Positions 7,160 through 7,848 of a DNA stretch of 64,000 bases are shown here, one piece after another (position 1 is the first letter of the stretch; every line of letters starts with the position of its first letter). The notes beneath the pieces are model-generated. The model ran no database searches, was not told where the DNA came from, and saw only the letters and a program-made list of their open reading frames with translations. The position numbers and the translations under genes are program-made. The DNA comes from a bacterium (GTDB lineage Bacteria; Patescibacteriota; Minisyncoccia; Phycocordibacterales; JAGLPS01): positions 79,670-143,669 of the forward strand of contig JAUYHB010000027.1 of assembly GCA_030690305.1 (NCBI GenBank). The letters are read 5' to 3'.

Positions 7160-7778
7160 TGAGTAGGGGGCGAAGTCGCCTTCGCCGCCCTCTCACACCA
7201 CCGTACGGACCGTTCGGTATAGGGCGGTTTCTATCATCTCCTGCCTTTTAGTCTCAATGCCTGTATCATTTAACCGCCCATTCTTAACTCAGGGATTCCG
7301 TCCCTTGCTTCCGATTGTGGCTTCCTTGCGGAACTTCTGGTCATGACTTCAGAATTTCAACTTGGCTTCTTATGACAGATTCAGCCCTTCTTCGTCTTTC
7401 GACGATTACTATGGCCTCTGCTGACTTCTGCATGTTCTTCCCATCGCCTCACGACGACGATAGCCTTGCGCCTGCCTGTCGGCAGACAGGGCAAACATGC
7501 AGACATCCCCGGGTAATGCGCACTTACCTTCCCGCTTATACCCGCCACATATACGCCCATGCTTTCCGGATAGGTTTTGGGCTTTAGAGATAATTGACTC
7601 CTCACCCAGCATGTCCGCCTCTATGTGATTCCTGTTCGTCGGGCCAGCGTTTTGCCTGCGGCTTCCTTCAGATTCTACCTCACGATAGACACCCTTGCCG
7701 TCCGGCTAACAGTTCCTCCTACCAAGCCTGTAAAGGACTTACACCTTCGAGTAAGTGCGCCCTGCCGGGCGCACAATA
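7160..7778. ncRNA. Candidate large structured non-coding RNA of unknown family; strand unresolved, plus favoured by a 3' terminator
   Basis: About 620 nt at roughly 54% GC lies between AT-rich flanks. It contains only short mutually overlapping ORFs on both strands, with Cys/Pro/His-rich nonsense translations. It is bounded by GC hairpins: GGCGAAG-UCGC-CUUCGCC at 7168-7185 and GUGCGCCC-UGCC-GGGCGCAC at 7756-7775. A perfect AT hairpin follows. Confidence 0.35.
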
Positions 7779-7818
7779 AAAAGAACTAAATTATTAAACT
7801 TAATAATTTAGTTCTTTT
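7779..7818. terminator. Perfect 19-bp inverted repeat hairpin, bidirectional rho-independent terminator
   Basis: AAAAGAACTAAATTATTAA-ac-TTAATAATTTAGTTCTTTT has T-runs on both strands. It separates the GC-rich element from the small minus-strand ORF at 7849-8064. Confidence 0.6.
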
Positions 7819-7848
7819 AAATTCAACCAATTCCCAATTCTAAAAGGA

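Follow-up and report, generated by a model that had tools for sequence, protein, structure and literature searches.

Full-length group II introns of class C include B.h.I1 and the O. iheyensis intron, and in the structural literature on the latter the class C domain V is short and carries a CGC triad instead of AGC. Introns of this class (IIC) insert just after intrinsic terminators (PMC4424553, PMC12584367). Bacterial introns without an ORF usually depend on related intron-encoded proteins (IEPs) supplied in trans, and the same sources give the Trichodesmium dnaN introns of Simon et al. 2008 as ORF-less introns of this kind (PMC4424553, PMC12584367). A 2024 report (Liu et al. Science 2024) described HYER (hydrolytic endonucleolytic ribozymes) as ORF-less group IIC introns, HYER1 being 637 nt long; they are reported to be protein-free hydrolytic endonucleases that cut RNA and ssDNA sequence-specifically, in vitro and in cells (PMC11754743, PMC12990946). 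Compact IIC introns without an ORF currently attract interest as small programmable nucleases that need no protein.

The locus studied here lies in a 64-kb stretch of DNA that was analysed as a whole and is called the window below. It is a GC-rich island whose true unit spans 7158-7774 on the minus strand and is read 7774→7158. The GC content of this unit is 53.3%, against 39.4% in the flank at 6500-7157 and 31.0% at 7775-8500, and just 6 of 1268 same-size windows across the 64 kb have an equal or higher GC content. Its two strands hold six overlapping ORFs of 54-90 aa, none of which gave a credible Pfam match, and the 617-nt island folds with a minimum free energy z-score of -4.8 relative to shuffled sequences. 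Three hairpins are found at or beside its ends: a GGCGAAG/CTTCGCC hairpin that is part of a 16-nt imperfect inverted repeat (7160-7195), a GTGCGCCC/GGGCGCAC hairpin with arms at 7755-7762 and 7767-7774, and a perfect 19-bp AT-rich inverted repeat with arms at 7779-7797 and 7800-7818 and 2 nt between them. A preliminary description of this DNA had noted the GC-rich island, the lack of a coherent ORF and the three hairpins, and had favoured a large structured ncRNA over a decayed gene; all of these points hold, the last one through the covariation given below. The hairpins had been assigned the wrong way round, however. On the minus strand the GUGCGCCC hairpin, taken as the closing one, opens the element at the intron 5' end, and the GGCGAAG hairpin, taken as the opening one, is the tip of domain VI and closes it. 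Similarly, the AT hairpin, which had been read as the terminator of the element, precedes the element when read on the element's own strand: it is the upstream gene's terminator and was the target of the insertion.

In an Rfam scan of the whole 64-kb window exactly two matches exceeded the gathering score; both are to group II intron models and lie within the island, on its minus strand. These matches, a third one seen at a relaxed threshold, and the parts of the element and of its insertion site are as follows, in the order in which they are read.

7779-7818, minus strand: 19-bp AT hairpin followed by UUUUUAUU, resembling an intrinsic terminator; class C insertion target
7775-7777, minus strand: IBS1 AUU, last 3 nt of the 5' flank, pairing with EBS1 at 3 of 3 positions
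7158-7774, minus strand: complete ORF-less group IIC intron of 617 nt, from 5' GUGCG to 3' ...CUACUCAAU
7770-7774, minus strand: 5' splice-site consensus GUGCG (GUGCG, GUGUG or GUAUG in relatives)
7508-7769, minus strand: domain I, intron nt 6-267, holding the exon-binding sites; from the consensus fold, compensatory changes and the RF02001 match
7689-7519, minus strand: match to RF02001 (group-II-D1D4-3), 140.2 bits (gathering score 32)
7593-7595, minus strand: EBS1 AAU (intron nt 180-182), located in the loop of a domain I hairpin; from the mutual-information scan
7551, minus strand: EBS3 U, intron nt 224; from alignment column 301 against 3' exon +1
7423-7507, minus strand: domain II, nt 268-352; from the family alignment and consensus fold
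7463-7384, minus strand: match to RF01998 (group-II-D1D4-1), 72.8 bits (gathering score 35)
7384-7415, minus strand: domain III, nt 360-391, with the conserved J2/3 AGAAGUCAGCAGAG just before it; from the RF01998 match
7230-7379, minus strand: miniature domain IV, nt 396-545, standing where an RT/maturase ORF would otherwise be; from covarying helices
7229-7158, minus strand: match to RF00029 (domain V/VI model), 34.9 bits, just short of the gathering score of 40
7197-7228, minus strand: domain V, nt 547-578, short class C form with CGC triad, 2-nt bulge and GAAC loop
7161-7194, minus strand: domain VI, nt 581-614, with GCGA tetraloop and bulged A at 7164; the GGCGAAG hairpin of the preliminary description

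We conclude, with a probability of about 93%, that the island is a non-autonomous, ORF-less group IIC intron that lies on the minus strand and went in at a terminator. The element is a divergent, previously undescribed member of the already known ORF-less IIC introns of the HYER type. Every feature of a group II intron, of class IIC and of an ORF-less IIC intron that can be looked for in a sequence was found: the six domains (D1-D6) with 5' GUGCG and 3' AU, in line with the group II consensus GUGYG and AY; short EBS1/IBS1 and EBS3/IBS3 pairings with no EBS2; and, as for the HYER type, a group IIC intron without a protein-coding region. The window element and HYER are alike in being group IIC ribozymes with no intron-encoded protein and are of similar length (617 nt and 637 nt for HYER1). 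A family HMM aligns end to end with 7774-7158 (E=1.6e-151), and the boundaries of the element are collinear with those of 29 relatives. No tblastn match to a class C RT was found anywhere in the 64-kb window, nor was a second copy of the intron; because the element is only 617 nt long, the usual RT/maturase gene does not fit inside it.

The preliminary description had envisaged an RNA outside known classes, comparable to GOLLD, ROOL or OLE, and had named an Rfam covariance-model search on both strands and a covariation analysis as ways of checking this. The search gave group II intron matches on the minus strand, two of them above the gathering score. GOLLD, ROOL and OLE resemble the window element in being about 600 nt long, highly structured and frequent on mobile elements, but no Rfam match to any of them was obtained on either strand at E≤10, and the comparison is not supported. 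Covariation is there and is strong over the full length; the class of the RNA is a known one and not a novel ncRNA. That description had also failed to place a group II domain V, which is present at 7228-7197 on the minus strand in its short class C form with the CGC triad. Its sequence is CCGCCCUAUACC-GAAC-GGUCCGUACGGUGG with a CC bulge, and its CGC stands where the RF00029 model has AGC (CCGCCC... aligned to GAGCCG). The bulged A of domain VI (7164) lies 7 nt from the intron 3' end, within the 7-8 nt that mark a group II branch point.

Two of the features mentioned so far, the step in GC content against the flanks and the overlapping short ORFs, would also suit a decayed coding fragment, or a horizontally acquired GC-rich scrap without RNA function, as would a 24-codon remnant ORF in the domain IV stub. 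The short ORFs gave no Pfam match, though, the remnant frame is not conserved in the full-length relative, and RNA covariation extends over the full length of an element with Rfam E-values of 1e-30 and 6.5e-13. The covariation already refutes an explanation of this kind, which is left with a negligible probability. For annotation, the ORF-less IIC intron gives a 'mystery RNA' a definite identity as a mobile ribozyme and clears away several short ORFs that are spurious; the finding by itself opens no new question. What the analysis adds is a divergent low-GC member and a family alignment that defines EBS1 (nt 180-182), EBS3 (nt 224) and a conserved miniature domain IV.

The intron's 5' end lies 4 nt beyond the stem of the AT hairpin, with UAUU in between, and 8 nt beyond the C of the CUUUU run, so that on the intron strand the hairpin and the U-run ...CUUUUUAUU stand immediately upstream of GUGCG. 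Hairpin and U-run follow a small ORF (7849-8064) at a distance of 30 nt from its stop codon, and this ORF is preceded by a promoter-like site (8160-8131). A simple terminator scan did not call this hairpin because its stem has fewer than 3 G-C pairs and there are only 2 nt between its arms.

The partners of the exons were sought with an unbiased mutual-information scan of every alignment column against the flanking nucleotides, using an alignment (A4) of the window element and 29 compact relatives (30 elements). Exon positions -1, -2 and -3 covary with columns 256-258 and are paired in 97%, 97% and 87% of cases, and exon position +1 pairs with column 301 in 28 of the 30 elements (93%). No partner for exon positions -4 or -5 was detected in any alignment column of these 30 elements. 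When flanks were swapped between elements, the mean pairing run fell from 3.73 to 3.10 ± 0.20. The family alignment and this EBS/IBS covariation fix the boundaries of the intron. In the window element the EBS3 U stands opposite a C (3' exon +1); just one other of the 30 elements has a mismatch here. HYER and the compact family (594-683 nt) share a short target recognition through the EBS1 loop and one more base; the recognition site of HYER is 6 nt (7 bp in all), whereas the natural flanks of the compact family covary at 3+1 nt only.

We searched for an empty site through exact matches to the flanking proteins and found none; the proteins matched one other contig only (Logan SRR13727534), and the same insertion is present there. 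The gene call of that contig includes a spurious 67-aa 'protein' inside the intron (L124:3439-3642).

Full-length class C introns (here L030, L013 and L111) have the same ribozyme, the same domains V and VI, the insertion at terminators, and EBS1 and EBS3 without EBS2. They differ from the window element in being about 1.89 kb long, with an RT/maturase ORF (RVT_1 + GIIM) that reaches up to domain V, whereas the window element has no ORF. Among the matches listed, L030 is the closest full-length relative, with 79% identity over intron nt 1-368. Its 467-aa ORF has RVT_1 and GIIM and no endonuclease domain, which places it with the class C IEPs (RT and maturase, no endonuclease domain) by domain content. 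Collinearity between the window element and L030 extends from nt 1 to about nt 506, a stretch that spans the region of the IEP start codon; beyond this point the window element reaches domain V after about 40 nt, whereas L030 continues with about 1.3 kb of ORF. The window element keeps the first ~100 nt of an L030-type domain IV region plus these ~40 nt, compactly folded. With ORF-less introns such as those of Trichodesmium dnaN the element shares the absence of an ORF, an intact ribozyme and a presumed IEP in trans. Introns of the Trichodesmium type are mostly IIB and lie inside genes, where their splicing matters to the host, whereas the window element is IIC, intergenic, and comes from a large and widely dispersed compact family.

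The consensus fold of alignment A4 has 139 pairs, 80 of which show compensatory double changes. Four parts make up its miniature domain IV: a basal stem, a hairpin with a GNRA cap (7322-7333), a GCC/GGC stem of 3 bp, and a hairpin (7291-7305) whose loop, CGGAA, is invariant and is followed by GAG. The domain IV helices are 95.9% paired, compared with 39-51% in controls with slid partners, and they contain 86 compensatory cells against 27 expected, a number reached by 0 of 500 shuffles. Of 20 full-length class C introns, 11 also have a CGGAA-loop hairpin with covarying stems (intron nt 458-497), and the RNA element is therefore older than the loss of the ORF. A recent simple deletion of the ORF was considered as the whole story and rejected, as the same stub architecture is common to, and covaries in, 30 diverse elements. 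Within the conserved miniature domain IV, which is a candidate for RT/maturase binding, we propose the CGGAA hairpin as the candidate binding site.

The remnant ORF (MTRSSARKPQSEARDGIPELRMGG*) occupies 7273-7344 on the minus strand within the domain IV stub and lines up with the beginning of L030's IEP region; its reading frame across the CGGAA hairpin is not conserved with respect to L030. The stub motif UGGGCGGUU was also examined as a switch that would pair with the 5' strand of domain V. This was discarded, the complementarity being lost in relatives (GGGCGCUUA); the motif pairs with GCC inside domain IV.

The exact domain V of the window had no match in species-representative genomes, and a degenerate domain V pattern matched at least 120 loci in them. 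Those loci among the listed matches that could be resolved are mostly full-length introns of about 1.89 kb. In 71 of the listed domain V matches (L004-L123) the motif lies within 700 nt of the end of a contig or stored block, and many short contigs end inside the intron, consistent with assembly breaks at multi-copy class C introns. A pattern combining the stub with domain V matched at least 120 metagenomic contigs and also 5 viral contigs; these last (L246-L250, IMG/VR, predicted viral or prophage contigs) carry compact IIC elements with the stub. Compact homologues without an annotated gene were found as well on Aeromonas IncP plasmids, Pseudomonas megaplasmids and pNGR234b of S. fredii (Sinorhizobium). 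In all, 38 distinct complete compact elements of 594-683 nt were extracted. All of them start with GUGCG, GUGUG or GUAUG (the proteobacterial plasmid copies with GUGCG), nearly all end with CCUAC(C/U)CGAU, and nearly all stand directly behind a different hairpin with a T-run. Among compact copies of the Firmicute type and those from metagenomes, all but a few have this placement. An RT-like gene was seen in 3 of 128 compact-element loci, within the locus sequence examined.

Compact copies that are 99.4% and 98.8% identical sit in flanks with chance-level similarity only, and the compact family has therefore moved recently. In a rough neighbour-joining tree, which carries no support values, the window element groups with L141, L143 and L237 at a distance of about 16%, L030 being at 19%. 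In this tree the compact introns have a few full-length ones scattered between them, and L071 and L109 represent independent losses of the ORF elsewhere in class C. The full-length Pseudomonas/Stutzerimonas introns L053 and L111 are placed beside proteobacterial compact elements (L191, L151, L204 and others) and, unlike these neighbours, have no CGGAA hairpin, which could reflect recombination or a tree artefact. In L172 two compact IIC elements are arranged head to tail (243-925 and 926-1608, plus strand); the second starts directly after the ...CCUACCCGAU of the first, as though it had used the first one's domain VI hairpin as its hairpin target.

A broader proposal, which we offer tentatively and regard as improbable, is that the stub-bearing compact IIC introns form a distinct, ancient, cross-phylum lineage. 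In such a lineage the miniature domain IV would be adapted either to commandeering the RT/maturase that full-length class C introns encode, in the manner of a SINE-like parasite of group II introns, or to an RNA-only cellular role, for example nucleic-acid cleavage in defence, and the window copy beside the Type III R-M operon would be a working example. Should the published HYER work not describe natural trans-mobilisation or this module of domain IV, the proposal would be new in that respect.

Returning to the copy in the window, it shows 22 departures from near-invariant columns of the family, a count that ranks second among the elements. The greater part of them consists of compensatory changes (G-C to A-U on both sides), and of the 144 consensus pairs only 4 are broken, which equals the family median. 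This compensatory pattern argues for selection on the fold after divergence. The domain V stem contains one C·C mismatch where 28 of 30 relatives have G-C, and there is a G-to-A change 3 nt from the intron 3' end. Judged from its sequence, the copy may be impaired by this C·C mismatch, the EBS3 mismatch and the change near the 3' end, and it may itself be an old, immobile insertion; we give roughly even odds that it is still active.

The same ORF-less IIC intron could, in the extreme case, be an inert relic, an old insertion that neither splices nor moves and persists harmlessly between genes. Such a relic has the same identity as in our preferred explanation and differs from it only on current activity. 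The domain V and EBS3 mismatches, the changed nucleotide at -3 from the 3' end and the 22 departures all point in this direction, as do the occurrence of a single copy in 64 kb, the absence of an RT in the window and a nearest relative that is only ~81-84% identical. Complete inertness fits poorly with substitutions that are mostly compensatory and with a count of broken pairs at the family median, which need selection on the fold, and the catalytic landmarks are all kept (GUGCG, CGC triad, domain V bulge, branch A and J2/3). We consider the relic doubtful, though it is the most serious of the competing explanations.

If the intron is functional, class C biology suggests the following course. 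Its RNA would be produced only when transcription of the upstream operon, from the promoter-like site, reads through the terminator; the transcript would then fold as a ribozyme and excise itself, joining the flanks ...UUUUUAUU and CUUGAAUC. Spread would occur by reverse-splicing into ssDNA at terminator-like hairpins, with targets selected by two pairings, EBS1/IBS1 of 3 bp and EBS3/IBS3 of 1 bp, and the cDNA would be made by an RT/maturase acting in trans from a full-length class C intron elsewhere in a genome. By analogy with the published descriptions of HYER (HYER1-6; PDB 8K0P, 8K0S), cleavage of single-stranded nucleic acids that match it is a further possible activity of the window copy, which differs from HYER in having the domain V mismatch.

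The genes adjoining the element encode an Xre protein and the Mod and Res proteins of a Type III restriction-modification (R-M) system, as the preliminary description had recognised for the R-M neighbours. The region resembles a defence island because, in addition to Xre and the Type III R-M genes, it contains wider integrative and conjugative genes. These belong to an integrative/conjugative-type island on the minus strand at 9830-28517, in which the following genes were noted.

9830-10873, minus strand: EEP-family nuclease
14332-15075, minus strand: TraT
19565-23416, minus strand: STAND NTPase
23486-25432, minus strand: serine recombinase with HTH
25443-28517, minus strand: T4SS coupling protein

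Chromosomal CysRS and DnaB genes are found at 52.5-55.5 kb. The preliminary description had taken the defence-island context as meaningful for the RNA. We do not retain this view: the intron lies here because class C introns target terminators and a terminator happened to be at this place, and nothing observed points to a part in defence.

It is conceivable that the intron has been domesticated as a HYER-like, protein-free RNA-guided nuclease acting against invading ssDNA or RNA on behalf of the host or of the integrative island. RNAs of the HYER type do cleave RNA and ssDNA sequence-specifically (PMC11754743, PMC12990946), the element, within an integrative island, has an uncharacterised operon on one side and the Xre/Type III R-M operon on the other, and the structure of the family is conserved across phyla. 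Against this, terminator targeting fully accounts for the location; the relatives follow the terminators of genes that are unrelated, and the loci read show no consistent association with defence; the natural exon pairing of only 3+1 nt is too little for a specific defence; and near-identical copies at many sites resemble a selfish element. The HYER reports cited here also give no natural function for these RNAs (PMC11754743, PMC12990946). Taken together, domestication appears very unlikely.

Three smaller observations concern the element and its border. Domain II of the intron contains a 21-nt insertion (7469-7489, minus strand) that forms an extra 8-bp hairpin, CCUGUCUG-CCGA-CAGGCAGG, absent from the 29 relatives. 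The 5' hairpin GUGCGCCN/NGGCGCAC (7755-7774, minus strand) and the basal helix of domain I are mutually exclusive, and column 8 of alignment A4 (among columns 8, 13 and 342) covaries with the partners of both, so an alternative, perhaps inactive, 5' conformation may be conserved too. Finally, the AT-rich segment between the intron 3' end and the start of Xre (7050), at 7057-7157 on the minus strand, contains TATTAT/ATAATA repeats and several promoter-like matches, and may be the controller-protein operator/promoter of the R-M operon.
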